From assembly GCA_020060565.1 (NCBI GenBank), contig JAGVAE010000002.1, positions 85,036 through 149,035 on the forward strand: DNA of 64,000 nt, read 5' to 3'. Origin of the DNA: Candidatus Woesebacteria bacterium. Its GTDB lineage: Bacteria > Patescibacteriota > Microgenomatia > UBA8517. This document shows, piece after piece, positions 1 to 9,235 of this stretch (positions are counted from its first letter, which is position 1; every line of letters starts with the position of its first letter). The notes below the pieces were generated by a model. That model did not search any database, was not told the origin of the DNA, and saw only the letters and a list, made by a program, of their open reading frames with translations. The position numbers and the translations under genes are program-made.

Positions 1-809
1 TTAATGAGGGTGTTCTCATTCTCAAAAAACCAAGGGTCAAACTTGAAAACTATATGATCGGGACTTCTATCGAGCTTGTTTGTTAATAAGTTGATAATTG
101 AAGTCTTGCCTTCTCCCCATTCTCCTTGTAAAGCAAAAACAAAAGGTGAGTTAAAAGGGAGGTTTGCTATTTGTGAGTGAAATTCATTGACAAAATCCCC
201 TCTGTCTAGAATATCCTCAGACTCTGTAGTTATGGGTTCGTCAGAAATGTCCTGGTCGAAATTTACAACACCCCTTTTATTTAAGACCTTTTTAAGTGGT
301 TTAAGTTTTACAACAATAAGACAAATCAGGTGGGCGAAATAAATGACAGCGAATGCTATAAAAAACGTAACAAAATATGGAAATATAAGGTTTTGTAATC
401 TTTCCCATTTTATTGAATCTATGTAATCTAGGTTTAAGAAATTAATATAAAGTATGAACAAGACAGCTGTAAACAAAATACTGGTTATTATGTTGTCGGG
501 GATGTTGTTGGTAGTCCTGATGTATCTGATACACATTTTGGAGCAGGGGGTGTATGCCACAACCCCACTGAAAAAGGTAAATAGAATTAATATTATTCCA
601 TAATTTGTGTGCCAGAGAGGGATATTTAAAACCAACCAAGAAAGAATTGCATTGACTATAATTTTACTCACAGAAAAATGGACAATAACATTTATCAATA
701 ATGCAAAAATATTAATTTTTACGACATAAAAGAGGGCATCTTTTAAACCCACCGTTGTGAATGAGGATGAGAATAATCTAAGAAGGTTTTTTGTTTTTTT
801 CCAGCCCAT
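1..809 (-). CDS. Membrane-anchored P-loop NTPase with a KAP-like Walker A; the C-terminus runs off the window.
   Basis: My translation of the minus strand from ATG 809..807 is open all the way to position 1. About 5 predicted TM helices are followed by a soluble region containing PFVFALQGEWGEGKTSIINLL, i.e. the GxWGxGKT/S Walker A typical of KAP NTPases. The ORF track omits it because it has no in-window stop. Confidence 0.45.
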   Translation of the reverse strand, partial: MGWKKTKNLLRLFSSSFTTVGLKDALFYVVKINIFALLINVIVHFSVSKIIVNAILSWLVLNIPLWHTNYGIILILFTFFSGVVAYTPCSKMCIRYIRTTNNIPDNIITSILFTAVLFILYINFLNLDYIDSIKWERLQNLIFPYFVTFFIAFAVIYFAHLICLIVVKLKPLKKVLNKRGVVNFDQDISDEPITTESEDILDRGDFVNEFHSQIANLPFNSPFVFALQGEWGEGKTSIINLLTNKLDRSPDHIVFKFDPWFFENENTLI

Positions 810-877
810 ATAAATATATAGGCAGTTCAGAGACAATTATAAGCTTATAAGAAGCATTTAACAAATTGGAATGAATC

Positions 878-1720
878 TTATATTTTGCAGTACTTATTTA
901 CGAATTCGTCAACAATTTTAGTTGCTTCTAAAAAGTATTGTTGAGAGATTGAGTCGGGTAATTCTATTGTTTTATTTACTACATCTAATGACATATTGTA
1001 TGCCTGAGAATCAATACCTTTTGGACAATAGTATTGTCTTAAATTGTGGGGAAGTGTTACTAAAACGAACTCTTGGTTATTTGTTTGTTGTAATTGTTGG
1101 CATTCTGTTTTTGATTTAATTTCCCAGTTTGTTCCTATCTGACAACACGTATACGATCCACTCTGACAGGCCTCTAGGCTTATTTTAATGCTTCTATTTT
1201 CGCACTTTGAACCAGTTGCACCTTTACAGTCTCCAATAAGTTTTTTCGGATCTGGAGTGGGTGTGGCGACAGGTTTTTTGGTGGGTATTGGAGTTGGGAA
1301 TAGAGTGGGGCTTGTGGGGGTTTCTAATTGAGGAGCTGGTGTTTGATTTGTGTTTGACTTTGCAAATGACATTATTCGAAGTTGTAATGTTGCCAAGATG
1401 ATAATGAACAATAAAATGGTTAAAATTAAAATTTTGGGGACACTAAGATTTTTTAAATATCTCGTAATATGTTGAAAGGATTTTTTATAGTTTGGAGGAT
1501 CTTTGATTAAGGTGTAAATGAGCCTAATAAATGCATACAAAATAGCCATTATGATTAGCAAGGGTAGAGGTAAAAAGAAGAGTGATATTTTCTCTGCCCA
1601 AATTGGGGAATTGTTATCCCCAGATATTAGTCGTGTGACCCAGAATAATATGTTTGTTCCAAATATGGAGACCACAACTGCTACAAGAGCGAATATAAAT
1701 TTGCTTCTAAGATTCTTCAT
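878..1720 (-). CDS. Hypothetical membrane protein with TM helices, a Pro/Thr-rich linker and a Cys-rich extracytoplasmic domain.
   Basis: 280-aa ORF. Hydrophobic N-terminal segments, a PTPTP-type linker and a C-terminal domain with about 9 Cys. Confidence 0.45.
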   Translation of the reverse strand: MKNLRSKFIFALVAVVVSIFGTNILFWVTRLISGDNNSPIWAEKISLFFLPLPLLIIMAILYAFIRLIYTLIKDPPNYKKSFQHITRYLKNLSVPKILILTILLFIIILATLQLRIMSFAKSNTNQTPAPQLETPTSPTLFPTPIPTKKPVATPTPDPKKLIGDCKGATGSKCENRSIKISLEACQSGSYTCCQIGTNWEIKSKTECQQLQQTNNQEFVLVTLPHNLRQYYCPKGIDSQAYNMSLDVVNKTIELPDSISQQYFLEATKIVDEFVNKYCKI

Positions 1721-1800
1721 AAAAAATTGGCCTTGAGGTGAGGCTAAAATTTGGTATCCTCGCCACAGCTATATTATGGCATACACGCCATAATTTTACT

Positions 1801-2010
1801 ATGTCGACATTAAATGAAAGGTTCGGGATCAATCTGATGGAATTAAGGAAGAAAAGCAGAATTTCTCAAATGGAGTTAGCAGAAAAATCGAAACTCGACT
1901 TAAAAACCATAAGTAATTTGGAGAATGGTATAAGACAGCCGGTTTTAAAAACAATTTGGAAATTGGCAAATGGTCTAAATGTCAGTATGTCCAAACTTCT
2001 AGATTTTTAA
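1801..2010 (+). CDS. XRE-family helix-turn-helix transcriptional regulator.
   Basis: The ORF is 1738..2010. The internal start MSTLNERFG precedes ISQMELAEKSKLDLKTISNLENG, a classic HTH_XRE motif. Confidence 0.6.
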   Translation: MSTLNERFGINLMELRKKSRISQMELAEKSKLDLKTISNLENGIRQPVLKTIWKLANGLNVSMSKLLDF

Positions 2011-2080
2011 TTATCTCCATTAGGTTATAAATAACGCCATCAAGATTTATACTGAATTCAGGAGTGGTAAGTAGTGGCAT

Positions 2081-2458
2081 ATGAAACAACCTAAATACAT
2101 AACAAAGAAACCTGAATATAGAATCCTCTTAGAGCTTATTAAGAAACACAAACTGTTTTTGTCTAAAGGTAAGGGTTATAACATCCAAGCTATCGTTAAA
2201 ACGCTCCACATTGACCCTAAAACGGCAAGAAAATGGCTAAATACACCCAAGGTTCAGGAAGCCATATCAGAAGAAATTGAATTTTATGTATCTAAGATGC
2301 AAGAAGTTGGGGCTACTGACTGGAAAATGTGGGCAAGACAGATAGAATTTGCATCAAAAAATAAAATGGAGGACTCAGAAGAGATGGGATCTAATGTGAT
2401 AATTATTAGAGATAAAGAGAAAGGCATATTTAGAATAACAGACGAACTACCAATTTAA
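2081..2458 (+). CDS. Hypothetical protein of the mobile element; small basic protein.
   Basis: 125-aa ORF with no motif I can assign. Confidence 0.35.
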   Translation: MKQPKYITKKPEYRILLELIKKHKLFLSKGKGYNIQAIVKTLHIDPKTARKWLNTPKVQEAISEEIEFYVSKMQEVGATDWKMWARQIEFASKNKMEDSEEMGSNVIIIRDKEKGIFRITDELPI

Positions 2459-2813
2459 CCCTTTCCTTTTTATTTGGTCCCATCTAGTACAGGTAGTGGT
2501 TAGAGATAAACCAATGGGTTTTTACCTGTTTTCTGGTGATTTTAATGAGCAATTTTATTCTTTCCAGCCTTGAGTAATAAAGGAAACTAGCAAATTGGTT
2601 ATAATTTTGACTTTTATACTTCATAATTTAAGTTATGTGCCAACAAACATACAAACAAAACAAGTGTAGCCAACTCTTTGAGCTGGTTGACAGATAAGTT
2701 ACGTGCAGAAATATCTTCAATTTTCAATCCCCGTTATGGTAGGAAGTTAACTCCTTTAGAAATTGACGAAATAGCAGAAAGTTTAACGTTGTTTACAGAA
2801 ACAATGACTGGAG

Positions 2814-3002
2814 GTGATTCCGATGGATAAAGTCGACCAAAAAACAACAAAACAGATAAAGATAGATGCCGGGTGGCATAGGTTGTTCAAAATCGCATCT
2901 GCAAAGGCTGGAGTGAGCATCAGGGAGCTTGTAGAGGCCTGTTTTGCTGATTCCCAGAAGAAAATTTGGAAAGAATATGGAATTGGAGCTGTCAATGAGT
3001 GA
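2814..3002 (+). CDS. Ribbon-helix-helix (CopG/Arc-like) small DNA-binding protein.
   Basis: 62 aa. The pattern KQIKIDAGWHRLFKIASAKAGVSIRELVEACF is a beta-strand followed by two helices. Confidence 0.4.
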   Translation: MIPMDKVDQKTTKQIKIDAGWHRLFKIASAKAGVSIRELVEACFADSQKKIWKEYGIGAVNE

Positions 3003-3348
3003 TTTTCAAAAAGCGAGCGAGGTGTTGAAAAAGAGTAACGATAATAACGTTAATAAATATAAATATAATAACGATAGTAACGTTAATGGTAAATACGCCT
3101 TGGATTTAAAAAAATTTACCCCAAATACCGAAGTGAGTGTTTTAGCCAAAGAAATAGCTGAAGATATGAACGATCTGGCCAACTTTGCTTGTTATCTGGA
3201 TGTTGTAAACAAATTGGGAGTACAAGGTGCAAGGGAGCATTGGAGATTAATCAAAAATGACATTTTGGAAAAATCAAAAACTAAAACCCCAGTCCGTTCG
3301 CCTAAAAAGTATTTTATGTATATGTTGAGAATGAAAGGTAGAAAATAA
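2995..3348 (+). CDS. Hypothetical protein translationally coupled to the upstream RHH gene.
   Basis: ATGAGTGA overlap with the RHH stop. N/K-rich 117-aa product (MSDFQKASEVL...). Confidence 0.3.
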   Translation: MSDFQKASEVLKKSNDNNVNKYKYNNDSNVNGKYALDLKKFTPNTEVSVLAKEIAEDMNDLANFACYLDVVNKLGVQGAREHWRLIKNDILEKSKTKTPVRSPKKYFMYMLRMKGRK

Positions 3349-3353
3349 TAGTA

Positions 3354-3382
3354 TTGACATTATCACAGAATGTATATATCAT
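3354..3382 (+). promoter_or_regulatory. Sigma70-like promoter candidate: TTGACA, 17-nt spacer, TATCAT.
   Basis: TTGACA at 3354..3359 and TATCAT at 3377..3382. The likely start codon at 3388 suggests a near-leaderless transcript. Confidence 0.3.
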
Positions 3383-3387
3383 ATATT

Positions 3388-3798
3388 ATGACTAAAATAT
3401 CTACGAGTGAGGCAACAAGAATTCTCGGAATAAATAAACAAACCCTATTTAGGTGGGAAAAAAGTGGATCACTACCAGCTGTTGAGAGAAAGGGTTTAAC
3501 TGAAGCACGTATGTACGATAAAGAGACGATAGAGGAGATTGCTATGTGGAGAAATCTCCGTAAAGAAGAAAAAGCACACCTAAGGAAACTTGGAAAAATT
3601 AGAGAAAAACTAGATAGTTATTTACCCACAAAGCCTCTTGATGCCTTTGAATCACCGAGAATGTTATCCCACGCAGAGTTTTTAGATATGAAAAAAGGGT
3701 ACGAAGATCTAAGAAAGTGGGAAAAGAAATTAGATGAAATTCAAGAAAGTTATTGGAGTTTTGCGAAAGATTATTTTGGAAAAAACTTTGATGAATAA
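3388..3798 (+). CDS. Excisionase/MerR-like HTH DNA-binding protein; possible recombination directionality factor.
   Basis: N-terminal MTKISTSEATRILGINKQTLFRWEKSGSLPAVER is an Xis/MerR-type HTH. It lies directly upstream of the recombinase, with an ATGAATAA overlap. Confidence 0.45.
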   Translation: MTKISTSEATRILGINKQTLFRWEKSGSLPAVERKGLTEARMYDKETIEEIAMWRNLRKEEKAHLRKLGKIREKLDSYLPTKPLDAFESPRMLSHAEFLDMKKGYEDLRKWEKKLDEIQESYWSFAKDYFGKNFDE

Positions 3799-5305
3799 TC
3801 AATCATTACAATATATTATTTATGCTAGAAAGTCGCAGGAAAATAAAGATAGGCAGGTGTTATCCATCGATTCCCAGATAACCGAGCTTCGTGAATTTGC
3901 TGACAAAAACAATCTCAATGTAGTTAAAGAATTTCAAGAAAGTCAGACTGCGTACAAAATTGGAAGACCTATTTTTGCAGAAATGATGGAACTTATTGAA
4001 ATGGGGGTTGCCAATGCAGTTTTAGTTTGGAAACCAGACAGACTTGCTAGAAACGCTATTGATGGAGGGAGGATCATACAGTCAATGGATGACAACTTAC
4101 TTCAAGAAATAAGAACTCCTTATGAAATTTTTCGACAAACAGACAATCGAATGATCGTTTACATATATTTTGGGATGAGCAATGACTATTCAAGACAAAT
4201 TAGTGCAAATGTAAAAAGGGGAAATAGGGAAAAATATAGACGCGGTGAATTTGTAGGAAAAGCACTTCTCGGTTATTTAAATGCTGATGTTGGAAATTCC
4301 AAAAATATAATTTTAGATCCACCTAAATCACAAATAGTGAAAAAACTTTTTGAAGAATACTCGGCAGGATTGTACTCGGTCATTGATATGGTCAAAAAGG
4401 CCGATGTATTGGGATTAAAAGGTATTTACGGAAATCCAATTGCCAAAAGTGGGATGTACAAACTTCTGAAAAATACAGCCTATTATGGTCTGTACAAACA
4501 CGGAGGAGAATATCATCAGGGAAGTTATGAACCTCTAATTTCGATAGATTTATTTAACAAAGTGCAGGATGTGCTAAAAAGTAAAGGGAAACCGAGAAAA
4601 TTTGGTTGGATAAATCACGCTTACAAAGCTAGATTGATTAAATGCGGTGAATGTGGGTGTTCAGTTACAGCTGAAACAAAGAGGAAATTTTATAAGACAA
4701 CAGGTAGGACAGGAATTTACACTTACTATCATTGTACAAAAAGGAGAGGTAAATGTTCGCAAAAGCCAGTATCTGAAGAGGAGATGGAGCAGATGTTGAG
4801 GAAATATGTTTACCGGATAGAGATAGATAAAGAGGTGTGGAATTTGGGCATTGAGTTGTTGAAGGCTAAACATAGTGGTGAGATAAAACAGTCAATTCTA
4901 AGTCGAAGGTTGATAGAAAAAGATTATGAAAAAGTTGACAGAGAACTAGAAAAACTTCTACAGCTTCGAATAGATCAAGAGATCACGGCAGAGGAGTACT
5001 CATCGAGTAAAAAAACACTAATGGATAAAAAGTTGTTAATTAAAGAAAAATTGGGTGATAGGGAACAAACCTCTAACAATTGGTTGGAACTTGCTGAAAA
5101 CTTCTTTGAAACTGCACTTCAGGCACGGAAAATTATGGAAGGTACGGATTTGCAAAGAAAGAGGGATTTGATTCAATCGGTCGGTTGGAACCTCCTTTTG
5201 AAGGATAAAAAACTCGATTTTAGCTTCAAAAAGCCCTATGACATACTACTAAAACCTGATGCACGTACTTCCGTGCAGAGGGGGAGGGATTTGAACCCTC
5301 GATAA
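3791..5305 (+). CDS. Large serine recombinase (integrase).
   Basis: N-terminal resolvase motif YARKSQENKDRQVLSIDSQ with a catalytic Ser, a recombinase domain, and a zinc-ribbon CGECGC...YYHC plus coiled-coil C-terminus. The 3' end overlaps tRNA-Ser(GGA) by 30 nt. Confidence 0.8.
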   Translation: MNNQSLQYIIYARKSQENKDRQVLSIDSQITELREFADKNNLNVVKEFQESQTAYKIGRPIFAEMMELIEMGVANAVLVWKPDRLARNAIDGGRIIQSMDDNLLQEIRTPYEIFRQTDNRMIVYIYFGMSNDYSRQISANVKRGNREKYRRGEFVGKALLGYLNADVGNSKNIILDPPKSQIVKKLFEEYSAGLYSVIDMVKKADVLGLKGIYGNPIAKSGMYKLLKNTAYYGLYKHGGEYHQGSYEPLISIDLFNKVQDVLKSKGKPRKFGWINHAYKARLIKCGECGCSVTAETKRKFYKTTGRTGIYTYYHCTKRRGKCSQKPVSEEEMEQMLRKYVYRIEIDKEVWNLGIELLKAKHSGEIKQSILSRRLIEKDYEKVDRELEKLLQLRIDQEITAEEYSSSKKTLMDKKLLIKEKLGDREQTSNNWLELAENFFETALQARKIMEGTDLQRKRDLIQSVGWNLLLKDKKLDFSFKKPYDILLKPDARTSVQRGRDLNPR

Positions 5306-5362
5306 CCTTGCGGTTATAGCCGATTTCCAATCGACCGCACTAGACCACTATGCGACCCCTCC
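5276..5362 (-). tRNA. tRNA-Ser (anticodon GGA), class II with a long variable arm.
   Basis: Cloverleaf folded by hand. Acceptor GGAGGGG/CCCCTCT (G1·T72 wobble), anticodon loop TTGGAAA, T-arm GAGGG-TTCAAAT-CCCTC. CCA is not encoded. Confidence 0.75.
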
Positions 5363-5377
5363 AGAATCTGTATTATA

Positions 5378-5869
5378 TCAAACAGAACCCTCAAGAAGCT
5401 CTTTGGCTTTTGTTAGCATTTGTTTTTCTCCTCCAAAAGAGAGTCTTTTTTTAGCATCTTCAAAAGATAGCCAAGCTATCTCTTCTGTTTCCCAATCAAA
5501 GCCTTCTGGTAAATCTTTTACATATTCCATTAAAAAGAATGTTACGAATTTTAAAATTTTTCCTCTTTGTGGATCTTTGAAAGAATACATTGAAGTTCCA
5601 ATTTTTTTAACTATCTTTGCCTCAACACCACCCTCTTCATTTACCTCTCTTATTGCAGCCATCTCAAGTGAGGTGGGGTCTGCTTTGATTAGTCCTTTAG
5701 CCATTGGCCCTGGTTGGTCACCATCCTCGTCATCCACTCTTCCTTTGGGAAGCATCCAGTATTGTTTTGGGTATAGTTCACTTTTAGAGGTTTTTCTAAC
5801 AAGCCAAAGTATTTTGTTTTTTTCTTTTTTAAAAACTACTCCCCCTGAAGAAAACTCTCTAGTGGTCAT
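5378..5869 (-). CDS. NUDIX hydrolase.
   Basis: Nudix box GRVDDEDGDQPGPMAKGLIKADPTSLEMAAIREVNEEGGVE. The start at MTTREF avoids overlap with the downstream gene. Confidence 0.65.
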   Translation of the reverse strand: MTTREFSSGGVVFKKEKNKILWLVRKTSKSELYPKQYWMLPKGRVDDEDGDQPGPMAKGLIKADPTSLEMAAIREVNEEGGVEAKIVKKIGTSMYSFKDPQRGKILKFVTFFLMEYVKDLPEGFDWETEEIAWLSFEDAKKRLSFGGEKQMLTKAKELLEGSV

Positions 5870-5874
5870 TGGGT

Positions 5875-6342
5875 TTAAAACATCACTACTTCTTGTTTTT
5901 TGAGGTTGTGTGTTTTTTCCCATTCTTTCAATACTTCTTTTGCTTCTTTTATTATATCCTTCTCTCTTTTGATACTTATTTTTTTAGCGGCATCTGCAAA
6001 ATCCAACCATTTAAATTGATCAAAACCTATAAGTTCACTGCTTCCACCTTTTTGAAGCATTAGATAATAATAAAACTTTTGGGGGATGGATTTGGCATTG
6101 ATTATGGTAGATCCTGTTGCACGCCCAGCCTCTTCCAATACTCTGGCAGCCATTCCACCTTGTTCACTGGCAAGTCTAATAACAGCACGAACAGAAGACT
6201 CTCCACGTCTAACGGTTACTTTTGGAATCTCCCAATCTGGATCGTCTTTTCCTTTAACCAGCAAAAATTGACGTTTACCACGGTTCTCTCTAAAAAGAAC
6301 TGCTCCTCCAATTACTATTTGTTGATTTTTGTTATTTTTCAT
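5875..6342 (-). CDS. NUDIX-like hydrolase with a divergent Nudix box.
   Basis: RRGESSVRAVIRLASEQGG approximates GX5EX7REUXEEXGU. It sits in tandem with the previous NUDIX gene. Confidence 0.5.
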   Translation of the reverse strand: MKNNKNQQIVIGGAVLFRENRGKRQFLLVKGKDDPDWEIPKVTVRRGESSVRAVIRLASEQGGMAARVLEEAGRATGSTIINAKSIPQKFYYYLMLQKGGSSELIGFDQFKWLDFADAAKKISIKREKDIIKEAKEVLKEWEKTHNLKKQEVVMF

Positions 6343-6373
6343 TTTATTTTGAACTCGTTTAAAAATCTTCGTG

Positions 6374-6461
6374 CGGTGGGGGCGAGATTCGAACTCGCGT
6401 GGATGAAATTCACCCCCAAGGTTTTCGAGACCTGGCAGATAAACCGCTCCTGCACCCCACC
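6374..6461 (-). tRNA. tRNA-Ser (anticodon CGA), class II.
   Basis: Acceptor GGTGGGG/CCCCACC, anticodon arm CAGGT-CTCGAAA-ACCTT, long variable arm, T-arm GCGAG-TTCGAAT-CTCGC. 88 nt. Confidence 0.75.
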
Positions 6462-6464
6462 TTG

Positions 6465-6539
6465 TGGTGCACCCACCCAGAATCGAACTGGGACCTAATC
6501 CTCCGCAAGGATCAACTCTATCCGTTAAGCTATGGGTGC
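6465..6539 (-). tRNA. tRNA-Arg (anticodon GCG as read).
   Basis: Acceptor GCACCCA/TGGGTGC is perfect, with an Arg-like D-arm GGATAGAG, anticodon loop TTGCGGA and T-loop TTCGATT. CCA is encoded. Confidence 0.65.
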
Positions 6540-6564
6540 CTTTCGACTCCGCTCAAGGTAAACT

Positions 6565-7143
6565 TTATTTATTCCCAGGCAATTTCTTAGAAACCCAGTT
6601 CGTAACTTTATCAAGTCCTGAGGCAGGTATTTCCTCAAATGGTATATAGGCAGAAATCTCATGCTTCAAACTATCTTTAATTTCAGGATTAATCATTACT
6701 TCAATTCTCCCTGGCATTAAAAATGTTTCAAAAATTAAGATTTCGCTTCCCGATCTTTCTCCAAACCAAAAACGAGACATTGCCTGCCACTCAGTTAGCT
6801 TACCTGCAATTTTTACTCCTTTAGACGTTATTTTATATTCAACATTCTCTGGCGGGACAGTTGAAAGAATGTAGTATAAAAATACTAAAGCTACAATCAA
6901 AATTACTGGCATTATTCCTTCTGCAAGAAAAAGAATCAGACTGATTATACCCGCAATTGCAAAAATTGTTGTATAAAACTGTCTGTCACGCCTCTTAAAT
7001 GGCCTTGCTGGTGCAATCCAAGTAAGAAGTTCACGCTCAGGTTCACGCCTGACAACCACAGCTTGCGGCTCAGAATTTAATGTACTTTCGGAACTAGATT
7101 TTTGATCTGTGGCAGGATCCATAATACGCGTATTATACCTCAA
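6565..7143 (-). CDS. Hypothetical membrane protein with two TM helices.
   Basis: 192-aa ORF containing hydrophobic segments FAIAGIISLILF and VILIVALVFLYYIL. No motif assigned. Confidence 0.4.
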   Translation of the reverse strand: MRYNTRIMDPATDQKSSSESTLNSEPQAVVVRREPERELLTWIAPARPFKRRDRQFYTTIFAIAGIISLILFLAEGIMPVILIVALVFLYYILSTVPPENVEYKITSKGVKIAGKLTEWQAMSRFWFGERSGSEILIFETFLMPGRIEVMINPEIKDSLKHEISAYIPFEEIPASGLDKVTNWVSKKLPGNK

Positions 7144-7170
7144 AAACTGATATAATTGCAGTGCCTAAAC

Positions 7171-7254
7171 GGAGAGCATGCCGAACGGCTAAGGCAACAT
7201 CCTGCTAAGATGTGTCGCGAAAGCGACTGGTGAGTTCGACTCTCACGCTCTCCG
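7171..7254 (+). tRNA. tRNA-Ser (anticodon GCT), class II.
   Basis: Acceptor GGAGAGC/GCTCTCC, 3-bp D-stem, anticodon arm ACATC-CTGCTAA-GATGT, long variable arm, T-arm GTGAG-TTCGACT-CTCAC. Confidence 0.75.
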
Positions 7255-7258
7255 CACT

Positions 7259-7343
7259 GGTGGGTGGGCAGGACGGTAATGCGCGAGTCTTGAAAACTCG
7301 TGAGCGTAAGCTCTAACAGGTTCGACCCCTGTACCCACCGCCA
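7259..7343 (+). tRNA. tRNA-Ser (anticodon TGA), class II; CCA encoded.
   Basis: Acceptor GGTGGGT/ACCCACC, anticodon arm CGAGT-CTTGAAA-ACTCG, long variable arm, T-arm ACAGG-TTCGACC-CCTGT. This is the integration site of the mini-island. Confidence 0.8.
7304..7341 (+). repeat. Left 38-bp direct repeat (attL-like), corresponding to the 3' half of tRNA-Ser(TGA).
   Basis: GCGTAAGCTCTAACAGGTTCGACCCCTGTACCCACCGC is identical to 8205..8242. Confidence 0.8.
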
Positions 7344-7362
7344 ACTTTTTTATCCAATAAAT

Positions 7363-8196
7363 ATGAATACTTACAAAGGCGATATTATTGAAGAATCTTT
7401 GAGTGATAAAGACATTCTCAAAGACATAAATATAATCTCAACCAGGGTCGAAAAGGTGACAAAAGAGCATCAAACGCCGTGGCTTTCTCAATGGACCTTG
7501 GACACGATCGAGGTTAACGATAGTCAATCTGACAATTTAGCTAAAAGTTTAAGCAAAGCCCTTGATTCTAAACATGGCTGGTATATTGATTATCGTAATG
7601 ACAAATATCATTATGTGATTTTTAAAAACAGAGTTTTCAAACTGGATCGTAGTAAAAAATCTGACTATGAAAAAATGATTAAATATGGATTGTCTGTGGG
7701 TACACCAGATTACCAGTTGCCAAACTTTTCTAATTTACCAATTGATGTTTTAGACACTTTTTTGAGAGAAGCGAATTTAAATACTTACGCCAACGAGAAT
7801 GTCAAAAGAGTGTCTTCGCTTCGTCCTGGTTCTAACGATTATCATTTCAAAAAAGGTGACCTAACTTATCATGACACCTATTTTGGTGCCACTAAATTTA
7901 TTGGTGAAGAAATTGTTTATAAAGGTAGTAAAGCCACATGGGGTATGAATTACTATGGTTTTACTGTTAGTAATCAAATAAGTGAGAGTTTGTTTGACGC
8001 GATTTTGCGTCCAGCTTTAATGGCAGGCTCTGGTGATAATATACCAGTTCGTGGACCAAAAGAGTTTATAAACGGCAAATGGAAATATACATTTAAAGCC
8101 GATGGTGACTTGGCAAACTTTACAGGAATAGAGGAAGTTTCTAAAAACGGTAAAGTGATTAGTCGGTTATATTGCCATGGTGGATTCATCGAATGA
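7363..8196 (+). CDS. Hypothetical protein; sole cargo of the tRNA-Ser(TGA) mini-island.
   Basis: 277-aa ORF. The ORF-track start at 7300 would overlap the tRNA, so ATG 7363 is preferred. No catalytic motif recognised; the C-terminal half (WGMNYYGFTV...GKWKYTF) looks beta-rich. Confidence 0.5.
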   Translation: MNTYKGDIIEESLSDKDILKDINIISTRVEKVTKEHQTPWLSQWTLDTIEVNDSQSDNLAKSLSKALDSKHGWYIDYRNDKYHYVIFKNRVFKLDRSKKSDYEKMIKYGLSVGTPDYQLPNFSNLPIDVLDTFLREANLNTYANENVKRVSSLRPGSNDYHFKKGDLTYHDTYFGATKFIGEEIVYKGSKATWGMNYYGFTVSNQISESLFDAILRPALMAGSGDNIPVRGPKEFINGKWKYTFKADGDLANFTGIEEVSKNGKVISRLYCHGGFIE

Positions 8197-8204
8197 ACCG
8201 AAAT

Positions 8205-8242
8205 GCGTAAGCTCTAACAGGTTCGACCCCTGTACCCACCGC
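8205..8242 (+). repeat. Right 38-bp direct repeat (attR-like); a duplicated tRNA-Ser(TGA) 3' fragment.
   Basis: Exact copy of 7304..7341 lying immediately after the stop of the 7363..8196 gene. Confidence 0.8.
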
Positions 8243-8243
8243 A

Positions 8244-8849
8244 TTATTTTGCAATAGTTAACCAAAAGATTCTTTTTACACCCGCTTTTCTTAAAGTTTT
8301 TGAGGCCTCACTGAGAGTGGAGCCAGTTGTGAGAACATCATCAAAAAGAATTAGCGGATAGCGATTAGTGATTAGCGAATAGTTAGAACTAAGAGAGAAG
8401 ACACCTTTTAAATTCTCATGGCGAGTACTACCTTTAAGCCCAACCTGGGGCTTGGTTGAAACTTTTTTAATTAGTAAATTGGGTTCATATTTCCAATTCA
8501 TTTCGCGTGCTACCAGTTTCCCAATCTCTTCTGCTTGATTAAATCCCCTAACATTTTGTTTGTGCCAATGGAGTGGAATAGGAATTAGTAAATAGTTCTT
8601 ATTAATTAGATTTGTTGATTTCAAGTTTCTGACACAAATATCTGCCAGCTCTTTTGCAACTTCTGTTGTGTATTTGTACTTAAGGGCAATAATTGCTTTC
8701 CTTATTACTCCTTCGTATCTAAAAATGGAGAGTTTGTCTTTGGCGAATCCAACCTTTCTGACTTTTTTCAAGCAGCTTTCACAAATATATTTTCCCTCCT
8801 TGCCACACTCAAGGCAGGCTTTGGGAAAGAATAAATCAAGAATTCCCAT
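8244..8849 (-). CDS. comF: ComF-family phosphoribosyltransferase-domain protein (ComFC-like).
   Basis: N-terminal zinc finger CLECG...CESC and C-terminal PRT motif LILFDDVLTTGSTL. The ORF-track N-terminal extension would overlap the tmRNA, so the start is placed at MGILDLFF. Confidence 0.6.
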   Translation of the reverse strand: MGILDLFFPKACLECGKEGKYICESCLKKVRKVGFAKDKLSIFRYEGVIRKAIIALKYKYTTEVAKELADICVRNLKSTNLINKNYLLIPIPLHWHKQNVRGFNQAEEIGKLVAREMNWKYEPNLLIKKVSTKPQVGLKGSTRHENLKGVFSLSSNYSLITNRYPLILFDDVLTTGSTLSEASKTLRKAGVKRIFWLTIAK

Positions 8850-8867
8850 AAAGGCAGTTTTTGTCTG

Positions 8868-9235
8868 CGGAGACGGTGGGAATTGAACCCACGTCCGAAA
8901 ATACTTAATACAAAACTTACTACAAGCTTGTTTGGTTTTTGAATTTTCATCGAGCTTATCCAACCAACAGGAACGCTCGATGTAAGATTTATTTGTCTTT
9001 TGTTTAAGCCTTTAAATCGTTAAAGCTCAAACAGCATCTCTAACGGGTTAATGCCCATTTGATTCGGTAGAGAATCAAACCAAAGGACACCGATTAAGCA
9101 AAGGCTAAATTATAGCCTTGGTAATCAGAAGCTGGACTTGCGTCTGCTTTTATTTTTTAACTCTGTTTAACGAGTATGGGTTAAACTCGGCTTGCAGTTT
9201 TGTTAAAGAGCTTCCCGTCGAAACCGATCGTCTCC
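8868..9235 (-). ncRNA. ssrA: tmRNA (ssrA).
   Basis: Lies immediately downstream of smpB. 5' GGAGACG pairs with 3' CGTCTCC as a tRNA-like acceptor, and the 3' T-arm is GGGTTCAATTCCC. The internal tag ORF GCAGACGCA...GCTTAA encodes ADASPASDYQGYNLAFA. ~368 nt. Confidence 0.7.

Follow-up and report, generated by a model that had tools for sequence, protein, structure and literature searches.

A 64,000-nucleotide stretch of contig JAGVAE010000002.1 from a Candidatus Woesebacteria bacterium, hereafter the window, carries near its left end a gene for a large serine recombinase (LSR), the last nucleotides of which overlap a convergent tRNA-Ser(GGA) gene at its 3' end. Positions 1..5291 of the window very probably belong to a small integrative element, of which they form the part next to the integrase, and which was inserted into the tRNA 3' end by this LSR. 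The presence of an integrated element is supported by empty sites in relatives, a difference at position 72 of the tRNA, direct repeats at the ends of related elements, and one attP junction. The window copy itself is an ordinary-looking member of an unusual clade that is apparently undescribed.

The occupied tRNA-Ser(GGA) gene and its empty counterparts

The reading frame of the LSR spans 3734..5305 on the plus strand and includes candidate starts at 3734, 3764, and 3791, of which the last was chosen because the alignment with 37 homologues begins right after it, giving a protein of 504 amino acids. The architecture proposed in the initial annotation, a Ser-resolvase catalytic domain followed by a zinc-ribbon/coiled-coil C-terminus, was borne out by Pfam, AlphaFold2, and Foldseek. 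Pfam identified the Resolvase (PF00239, E 7.8e-20), Recombinase (PF07508, E 6.1e-10), and Zn_ribbon_recom (PF13408, E 1.4e-7) domains, and the best assignment among the PHROGs was integrase phrog_95 (E 4.3e-71). The catalytic motif YxRxS (Y11, R13, and the nucleophile S15) and the DRLARN arginines R84 and R87 were invariant or nearly so among 38 homologues, as were the zinc-ribbon cysteines (C285, C288, and C322 invariant, C315 nearly so). The AlphaFold2 model (predicted local distance difference test, pLDDT, 81.5) contains the catalytic domain, a long E-helix, the recombinase domain, and the zinc ribbon, followed by the antiparallel long helices 362-394 and 400-428 of a coiled coil, and it matched SPbeta-type, PhiC31, Bxb1, and A118 integrases over their full length in Foldseek (E 2.5e-21 to 4e-14). 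A phmmer search of PDB sequences gave a best E of 8e-5, annotated phage or plasmid LSRs were at most 29% identical, and IMG/VR included only two moderately close LSRs (43% and 35%); in the follow-up of the IMG/VR matches, no phage signal was found among the proteins of locus L080. By every mark that could be tested, the protein is a large serine integrase, and it is distant in sequence from the characterised ones.

The LSR stop codon lies at 5303-5305, so that the final 31 nucleotides of the gene, counting the stop, are antisense to the tRNA's 3' end; the overlap reported in the initial annotation therefore stands, with a length of 31 rather than 30 nucleotides. Residues 496-504 (QRGRDLNPR) are coded wholly by antisense tRNA, and the tail 494-504 is modelled with pLDDT below 50 and is not conserved across homologues. 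The overlap is not due to chance, because the same geometry was found in 96 of 131 evaluable homologous loci.

Three contigs were fetched as encoders of homologues of the NUDIX protein at 5378..5923, which adjoins the tRNA gene. Each of them (L243, L244, and L245, with NUDIX identities of 85%, 78%, and 78%) contained an uninterrupted tRNA-Ser(gga) gene with no recombinase beside it. The tRNA is followed in L243 by a 72-amino-acid open reading frame (ORF), dnaG, and rpoD, in L244 by an Exo_endo_phos (phosphatase) gene, dnaG, and rpoD, and in L245 by an Exo_endo_phos gene and dnaG, with rpoD cut by the contig end. The right-hand synteny of L244 is that of the window, comprising tmRNA, tRNA-Ser(tga)/Ser(gct), tRNA-Arg/Ser(cga), two NUDIX genes, and tRNA-Ser(gga); L245 and L243 are shorter and retain only its tRNA-proximal part. 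The blastn homology to the window (84%, 73%, and 73% for L243, L244, and L245) ended in all three at 5275, the last base of the tRNA. Since homology stops there, and since dnaG, rpoD, and the phosphatase gene are absent from the 64-kb window, the DNA to the left of 5275 is extra with respect to these relatives. The comparison with genomes lacking the element, which the initial annotation had recommended, hence yielded three empty sites and a sporadic occurrence of the element.

The tRNA-Ser(GGA) of the window was called intact by ARAGORN, and its 3' segment differs from that of the empty sites. It has a G1-U72 pair where the relatives have G1-C72: its 3' end reads CCCCTCTGC and the empty sites read CCCCTCCGC, and the acceptor 3' strand is CCCCTCT in the window and CCCCTCC at both empty sites compared. 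Position 72 is the sole difference, and the window tRNA otherwise equals the L243 copy, including the whole stretch from the 5' end through the T-arm. Such a difference is the expected mark of a tRNA rebuilt with an element-borne 3' end and supports this origin. An att core within attR, supplied by the element, is predicted at tRNA positions ~58-74 (Table 1), because the repeats of related elements end at T-loop positions 54-59, position 72 differs, and homology stops at 5275. This core would cover the 3' part of the T-loop, the 3' strands of the T-stem and the acceptor stem, and the discriminator.

Two further observations were made in the contigs with empty sites. L244 encodes another LSR of the same superfamily (L244:16980-18766, minus strand; 27% identity), the ORF of which enters an apparent intron-split tRNA-Asn and is adjoined by rRNA adenine dimethylase-like and HTH_17 genes. 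In L243, a 14-nucleotide copy of the tRNA-Ser(gga) 5' end (GGAGGGGTCGCATA; L243:1079-1100) is located ~30 nucleotides upstream of the real tRNA and may be the scar of an event at the tRNA 5' side.

Ends of related elements and a proposed mechanism of integration

Repeats of the tRNA 3' end were searched within 10 kb upstream of the LSR in 93 loci, using nine offsets and a total of 664 kb, where matches of 10-11 nucleotides were ignored as chance. A direct repeat was found in eight loci, with a length of 12-21 nucleotides, a distance of 4.4-11.2 kb, and a start 0-4 nucleotides from the last base of the tRNA. These were L004 (21 nucleotides, 8.4 kb), L032 (20, 5.5 kb), L046 (19, 4.4 kb), L056 (19, 7.6 kb), L002 (18, 11.2 kb), L031 (16 in two copies, 9.1 kb), L191 (16, 10.4 kb), and L005 (12 plus six after one mismatch, 5.3 kb). 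By our own calculation, ~0.001 repeats of at least 16 nucleotides are expected by chance over all loci. The att repeat anticipated in the initial annotation was therefore recovered in these eight relatives, although its length is about 16-21 nucleotides, from the tRNA 3' end to the T-loop, and not ~20-30. With the T-loop as anchor, the repeats have their inner edge at tRNA positions 54-59, which places the crossover at or 3' of T-loop nucleotides 59-60. The element supplies the discriminator and the 3' strands of both the acceptor stem and the T-stem.

The 2.5-kb contig L039 provided the reciprocal arrangement. Its LSR shares 88% DNA identity with that of L046 and is followed by the 19-nucleotide core and then by sequence 72% identical to the left end of L046. 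This P-core-P' junction (attP) represents an excised or unintegrated form of an L046-like element. Terminal overlaps indicative of circular contigs were not found in any fetched contig.

The following mechanism is proposed. The attP would lie at the very end of the LSR gene and bear a copy of the last ~17-20 nucleotides of the tRNA up to the T-loop, and its recombination with the chromosomal tRNA gene (attB) would involve a crossover at or just 3' of the T-loop. The tRNA would thereby be rebuilt from the host 5' body and the element 3' end (attR, 5275..~5291), and the LSR ORF would, after integration, extend into antisense tRNA and end at whichever stop codon comes by chance. Beyond position 1, next to dnaG-rpoD, attL would be marked by the host 3' fragment that was displaced, approximately GCGGAGGGGGAGGGAT on the plus strand with a G in place of the window A at 5277. 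Statements on the crossover dinucleotide, the present activity of the window copy, and the control of excision are inferred. The unfinished KAP gene at the left edge would imply a size of at least ~6.5 kb for the window element, and candidates for an excision function are the family-wide two-helix protein and the local MerR/excisionase-fold protein described below.

The P and B half-sites share an identity of ~17-20 bp, unlike textbook LSR sites. Integration could therefore recur at the rebuilt tRNA in attR, and such re-use might explain the double cores of L031. Separately, a 24-nucleotide motif (GTCYACTTTATGGGGTACAGATCA) was observed just outside the attL core in two elements of one metagenome-assembled genome (L031:1430-1455 and L046:1157-1180), and in L033 (~6420-6445) its reverse complement takes the place of a tRNA immediately after the LSR stop. 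This motif and the L031 double core might each come from an element in tandem or left as a remnant, from a repeat of the host, or from an alternative site.

The recombinase clade, its small partner and its cargo

Homologues were abundant, and a total of 163 loci were gathered, of which 131, almost all from Patescibacteria, were long enough to be judged. Where a homologue had a named host, this was among Microgenomates, Beckwith-, Curtiss-, Pace-, Woese-, Levyi-, Nomura-, and Taylorbacteria, WWE3, and Saccharibacteria. The LSR stop codon was located inside a convergent tRNA in 77 loci, and the ORF passed through the whole tRNA in another 14; the tRNA was 31-101 nucleotides downstream in six, and ARAGORN detected none in 34. 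Five of these 34 (L013, L020, L022, L028, and L166) had a group I intron (Rfam RF00028, 53-119 bits) exactly at the expected tRNA body, just downstream of the LSR stop, and their target tRNAs were missed by ARAGORN because of these introns. The serine-integrase islands therefore also occupy intron-bearing tRNA genes, and the five loci fit a report of intron-containing tRNA genes in Patescibacteria (PMC13011429). Hence, the LSR gene runs into a tRNA gene in 96 of the 131 loci (77 + 14 + 5). Homologue C-termini resemble translated T-arms (for example, …RESNPQ and …RDSNPR), and 24 anticodon types were found by ARAGORN at or beside LSR ends, led by Gln (36), Trp (14), and Asn (14). Bacteroidota homologues, at ~30% identity, showed no tRNA overlap. 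As a separate observation, two cobalamin-riboswitch matches barely above the Rfam gathering score were found in L028 (12765-12884 and 13979-14096), whose contig is Patescibacteria-like.

The phylogenetic placement called for in the initial annotation was obtained from a neighbor-joining tree of 141 LSRs, in which the window LSR nests among ten LSRs of 56-74% identity. Nine of them are located at tRNA-Trp(cca), and the tenth, L161, is cut, with a remaining sequence that resembles tRNA-Trp. The targets are alike as well, with 20 of 26 positions shared by our own count between GCAGAGGGGGAGGGATTTGAACCCTC of the window and GCAGGGCCGGAGGGAATCGAACCCCC of L004. From these sequences, the window element seems to have switched its target recently, moving from tRNA-Trp to tRNA-Ser(GGA). 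Its closest relative, L161, shares an LSR identity of 74% and the same gene module, which consists of an XRE regulator, a 125-amino-acid protein, a small protein, a ribbon-helix-helix protein, a protein differing between the two, a MerR-like protein, and the LSR. The cargo is not common to both, and 1738..5305 can therefore be considered the conserved core and 1..1720 the variable cargo. The contigs of the closest LSRs, L161 (3989-4017) and L162 (its end), came from different sequencing runs and both end ~29 nucleotides into the tRNA, which fits an assembly-graph branch arising from a population with both empty and occupied sites.

No description of the clade or of its small partner was found in the literature searched, with subscription journals outside the search; the clade is apparently large, tRNA-targeting, and undescribed.

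The small partner is a family of ~60-amino-acid two-helix proteins with the consensus LSKELIEEFKKIFEPKYGRELSDEEAIEIANNLLNL. In 123 loci, a converged hidden Markov model detected a member on the strand of the LSR and no more than 3.5 kb upstream of it. These include 104 (85%) of the 122 loci whose upstream sequence reaches at least 2.5 kb, and the median gap is 803 nucleotides. The family was present in seven of the eight bounded elements, with L056 as the exception, and it also occurred beside the Bacteroidota LSRs that do not touch tRNAs, suggesting that it goes with the enzyme and not with the target. The 50-amino-acid member in the window was modelled as a helical hairpin of two helices (pLDDT 82). 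Relatives of the family were not found in Pfam, PHROG, or PADLOC, and a Foldseek search of the PDB, with its chains of recombination directionality factors (RDFs) included, returned nothing below E = 2.7. Homologue searches recovered two proteins with the word-indexed method and 30 at E ≤ 1e-3 with the exhaustive one, including one spurious low-complexity match.

Several LSR directionality factors are proteins of 50-70 amino acids. Additionally, RDFs are described as having no common fold (PMC11795197). On these two grounds, the 50-amino-acid protein is rated by inference as the best family-wide candidate for an RDF or other LSR cofactor, ahead of the MerR-like gene. The latter had been proposed as the Xis in the initial annotation. 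The gene is indeed present and overlaps the LSR start, by eight nucleotides, with translational coupling; however, it was conserved only in L161 (79% identity), as other relatives lack it at that position, and its role as a family-wide Xis was rejected. The family-wide companion of the LSR is instead the small partner of the ribbon-helix-helix gene, and the MerR-like protein may be a local regulator or Xis.

The features of the window are listed in Table 1. The ribbon-helix-helix gene coupled to a small partner and the upstream XRE regulator were both found as first annotated, with the start of the former overlapping the end of the 50-amino-acid ORF by 17 nucleotides. Identities to the copies in L161 were 80% for the XRE regulator, 89% for the 125-amino-acid protein, and 68% for the ribbon-helix-helix-like protein. 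The ORF at 2944..3348 sits in the slot where relatives have a replication initiator, but it was rejected as such, being not homologous to the HTH_36/DnaD-like protein at this position in L161 and matching no family. Of the membrane proteins first proposed at the left edge, the KAP-like NTPase was recovered with Pfam KAP_NTPase (E 7.9e-12) and PADLOC PifA (E 4.9e-13, also PDC-S20 and QatA), and the membrane nature refers to hydrophobic N-terminal parts seen by inspection only. The NTPase is probably defence cargo. The neighboring 280-amino-acid ORF is probably also cargo; it had no match in Pfam, PHROG, or PADLOC, and its exact sequence occurs in JGI/IMG with the label hypothetical.

Table 1. 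Features identified at the left end of the window, with positions, strand, and basis of assignment (aa, amino acids; HMM, hidden Markov model; HTH, helix-turn-helix)
Positions	Strand	Feature	Basis
3..809	-	KAP-family P-loop NTPase, N-terminal 269 aa, PifA-like, runs off left end	Pfam, PADLOC
878..1720	-	280-aa ORF	By inspection only: N-terminal part hydrophobic, C-terminal part rich in Cys
1801..2010	+	XRE-family HTH regulator, alternative GTG start 1738	HTH_3 E 1.5e-12
2081..2458	+	125-aa protein, weak HTH signal	Weak HTH_23 and terminase-small-like matches
2678..2830	+	50-aa member of ~60-aa two-helix protein family	Converged HMM
2814..3002	+	62-aa ribbon-helix-helix-like protein	Omega_Repress E 3.7e-6, below Pfam curated cutoff
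2944..3348	+	134-aa ORF; ATG near 2974 may be true start	No family match (Pfam, PHROG, PADLOC)
3354..3382	+	Strong promoter-like site before MerR-like gene and LSR	11/12 consensus positions; consensus match only
3388..3798	+	136-aa MerR/HTH_17 (excisionase-fold) protein	MerR_1 E 8.2e-8; weak PHROG excisionase matches
3791..5305	+	Large serine recombinase (integrase), 504 aa	Pfam, PHROG, alignment, AlphaFold2, Foldseek
5275..5291	.	Predicted att core within attR, tRNA positions ~58-74, element-supplied	Analogy to repeats of eight related elements
5275..5362	-	tRNA-Ser(GGA), integration target, intact	ARAGORN

The genes upstream of the LSR in related loci included the ~60-amino-acid protein in three clusters (48, 45, and 24 loci), a DUF5659-like protein of ~80 amino acids (47 loci), an XRE regulator mostly in divergent orientation (46 loci), and a rolling-circle Rep (REP_ORF2-G2P/RepSA, phrog_3419; 20 loci), and HTH_36/DnaD-like initiators recurred as well. 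The cargo of the bounded elements included defence genes. For example, a CBASS cyclase and a 2TM effector (E 5e-102 and 1.4e-51) were found in L002:6111-7557, and an AriA/GajA-like ATPase with an Mrr-type nuclease in L004:4566-7732; both modules look complete. Additionally, L191 carries a 985-amino-acid trypsin-like protein. Among the scanned proteins of the eight bounded relatives (4.4-11.2 kb), no virion gene was recognisable, and these relatives look like small integrative replicons or islands with defence genes and not like prophages; members larger than these may exist. The cargo of the window, a PifA-like KAP NTPase and the 280-amino-acid ORF, fits the defence cargo of the bounded relatives. 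The 11.2-kb interval of L002 also includes UbiA, GT28, NTP-transferase, and UppS genes, which would be odd as cargo.

Alternative explanations and comparison with known systems

The initial annotation regarded the order of regulators, RDF, integrase, and tRNA as typical of a prophage or an integrative element. The empty sites, repeats, and attP speak for an integrated element, and the bounded relatives are not recognisable prophages. A full-size prophage with its structural genes to the left of the window is improbable, even though the gene order is typical there too and the left part lies outside the window. The absence of a repeat within 10 kb at 85 of 93 related loci suggests that some elements may be large, and two small helix-turn-helix proteins gave weak PHROG terminase-small-like matches; apart from these, no virion or packaging genes were found in 1..5305. 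The eight bounded relatives, however, carry rolling-circle Rep or HTH_36 initiators and defence genes in place of virion genes, the genes nearest the window edge are oppositely oriented cargo and not phage functions, and the identity to annotated phage LSRs is low.

The intact LSR ORF, with all its catalytic and zinc-binding residues and a confident fold, argues against a fixed and immobile remnant of an old insertion in which the LSR has persisted or been repurposed. Such a remnant would be consistent with the lack of a left boundary, excised form, or population data for the window copy, with the absence of a recognised replication gene, and with the G-U pair atop the acceptor stem, which indicates some divergence from the host version. 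It is nonetheless unlikely, as the closest host relatives lack the element and the nearest LSR relatives occupy a different tRNA (Trp), implying that the element moved recently and changed its target. The idea that the LSR is instead an invertase or resolvase belonging to another system, with a chance overlap of the tRNA, would draw on the tight packing of compact patescibacterial genomes and on the fact that serine recombinases also act as invertases and resolvases. This origin is hardly credible given the full large-serine-integrase architecture, which differs from the small resolvase form, the recurrence of the same overlap in 96 of 131 loci at many tRNA species, the empty sites in relatives, and the lack of any inverted copy of the tRNA 3' segment in the window.

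Several points weigh against the interpretation of 1..5291 as part of a small integrative element. The left junction lies beyond position 1, so no direct repeat is available for the window copy, and a repeat of the tRNA 3' end of at least 12 nucleotides was not found on either strand of the 64-kb window. A replication initiator was not recognisable in the window, unlike in many relatives. The dyad symmetry of the L039 attP, when compared without gaps, was at best 12 of 26 positions and no better than in shuffled sequences. Finally, the loci without a repeat within the 10 kb available (85 of 93) indicate that many elements must be larger, decayed, or rearranged.

Taken with the family-wide data, a broader interpretation can be put forward, which we regard as equally apt to prove right or wrong. 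A large, undescribed clade of serine integrases in Patescibacteria would have taken over the tRNA niche of tyrosine integrases, with a T-loop crossover, the tRNA 3' end carried within the end of its own gene, and retargeting among 24 anticodon types, of which the window copy would be one case (Trp to Ser(GGA)). With the ~60-amino-acid two-helix cofactor as a new RDF family, it would move self-replicating islands of 4-11 kb that are a main vehicle of anti-phage defence (CBASS, PARIS/Gabija-like, and PifA-like) in these reduced genomes.

Most characterised LSRs use short cores and integrate either within protein genes or between genes. In contrast, the att segment shared here is long (16-21 nucleotides) and wholly one-sided up to the T-loop, and the recombinase ORF runs through attP. 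The LSRs of A118/LI, SPbeta (SprA), PhiC31, Bxb1, and TP901-1 have the same domain order and likewise a coiled coil inserted in the zinc ribbon, whereas their sequence similarity to the window LSR is very low and the target in the window is a rebuilt tRNA gene. PhiRv1 of Mycobacterium is a precedent for an LSR with an Xis-type helix-turn-helix directionality factor, and its pairing with a small excisionase-fold protein resembles the MerR/HTH_17 gene coupled to the window LSR; however, PhiRv1 targets a repetitive element and not a tRNA, and the MerR-like gene is not conserved in the wider clade.

The elements also resemble the tyrosine-integrase islands of tRNA and tmRNA genes (Islander-type), in which the integrase lies beside the tRNA, the element carries and restores the 3' segment, a direct repeat marks the far end, and the occurrence is sporadic. 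The T-loop and the 3' end were reportedly distinguished by Williams in 2002 as sublocation classes of tRNA integration sites. In contrast to these islands, the enzyme here belongs to the unrelated serine family, so arm-type sites or IHF-like requirements are not expected and the excision factor is probably different. Similarly, pSAM2 and other actinomycete integrative and conjugative elements are small (~10 kb) replicons integrated at tRNA genes that carry int, regulators, and a rolling-circle initiator of the RepSA type, and the Rep proteins of the related elements match REP_ORF2-G2P and RepSA. pSAM2 encodes a tyrosine integrase and FtsK-like transfer genes, whereas transfer genes were not seen in the present elements and the window has no recognisable Rep.

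[quoted passage not shown] Using TIGER, Mageeney et al. (2020) assigned 14 of 297 serine-integrase elements to t(m)RNA genes, a usage which they called previously unreported and in need of proof (PMC7192596); the earlier remark that LSRs at tRNAs are rarer than tyrosine integrases fits this report. In comparison with those few unverified calls from complete genomes, the present loci form a coherent clade of ~100 examples across Patescibacteria with repeats, empty sites, and an attP junction.

LSRs are preferred tools for large DNA insertion, although each usually has an idiosyncratic natural target. A clade that reads the conserved T-arm and acceptor end of tRNA genes, and has repeatedly switched tRNA species, offers a natural series for the evolution of LSR specificity, with attP/attB pairs that can be read straight from genomes. 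Its members are candidate integration tools for Patescibacteria, which are almost without genetics, and they appear to carry defence systems in ultra-small genomes. A new directionality factor may be represented by the conserved 60-amino-acid partner, a candidate open to testing, and tRNA-restoring integration is not tied to tyrosine recombinase chemistry.

To the right of the tRNA, the window includes a stretch dense in RNA genes (5378-9235), composed of two tandem NUDIX genes, tRNAs, and a tmRNA at 8867-9235. Within this stretch, tRNA-Ser(cga) and tRNA-Arg(gcg) are 3 nucleotides apart, as are tRNA-Ser(gct) and tRNA-Ser(tga) on the opposite strand, and the gene order is kept in relatives at 73-84% DNA identity.

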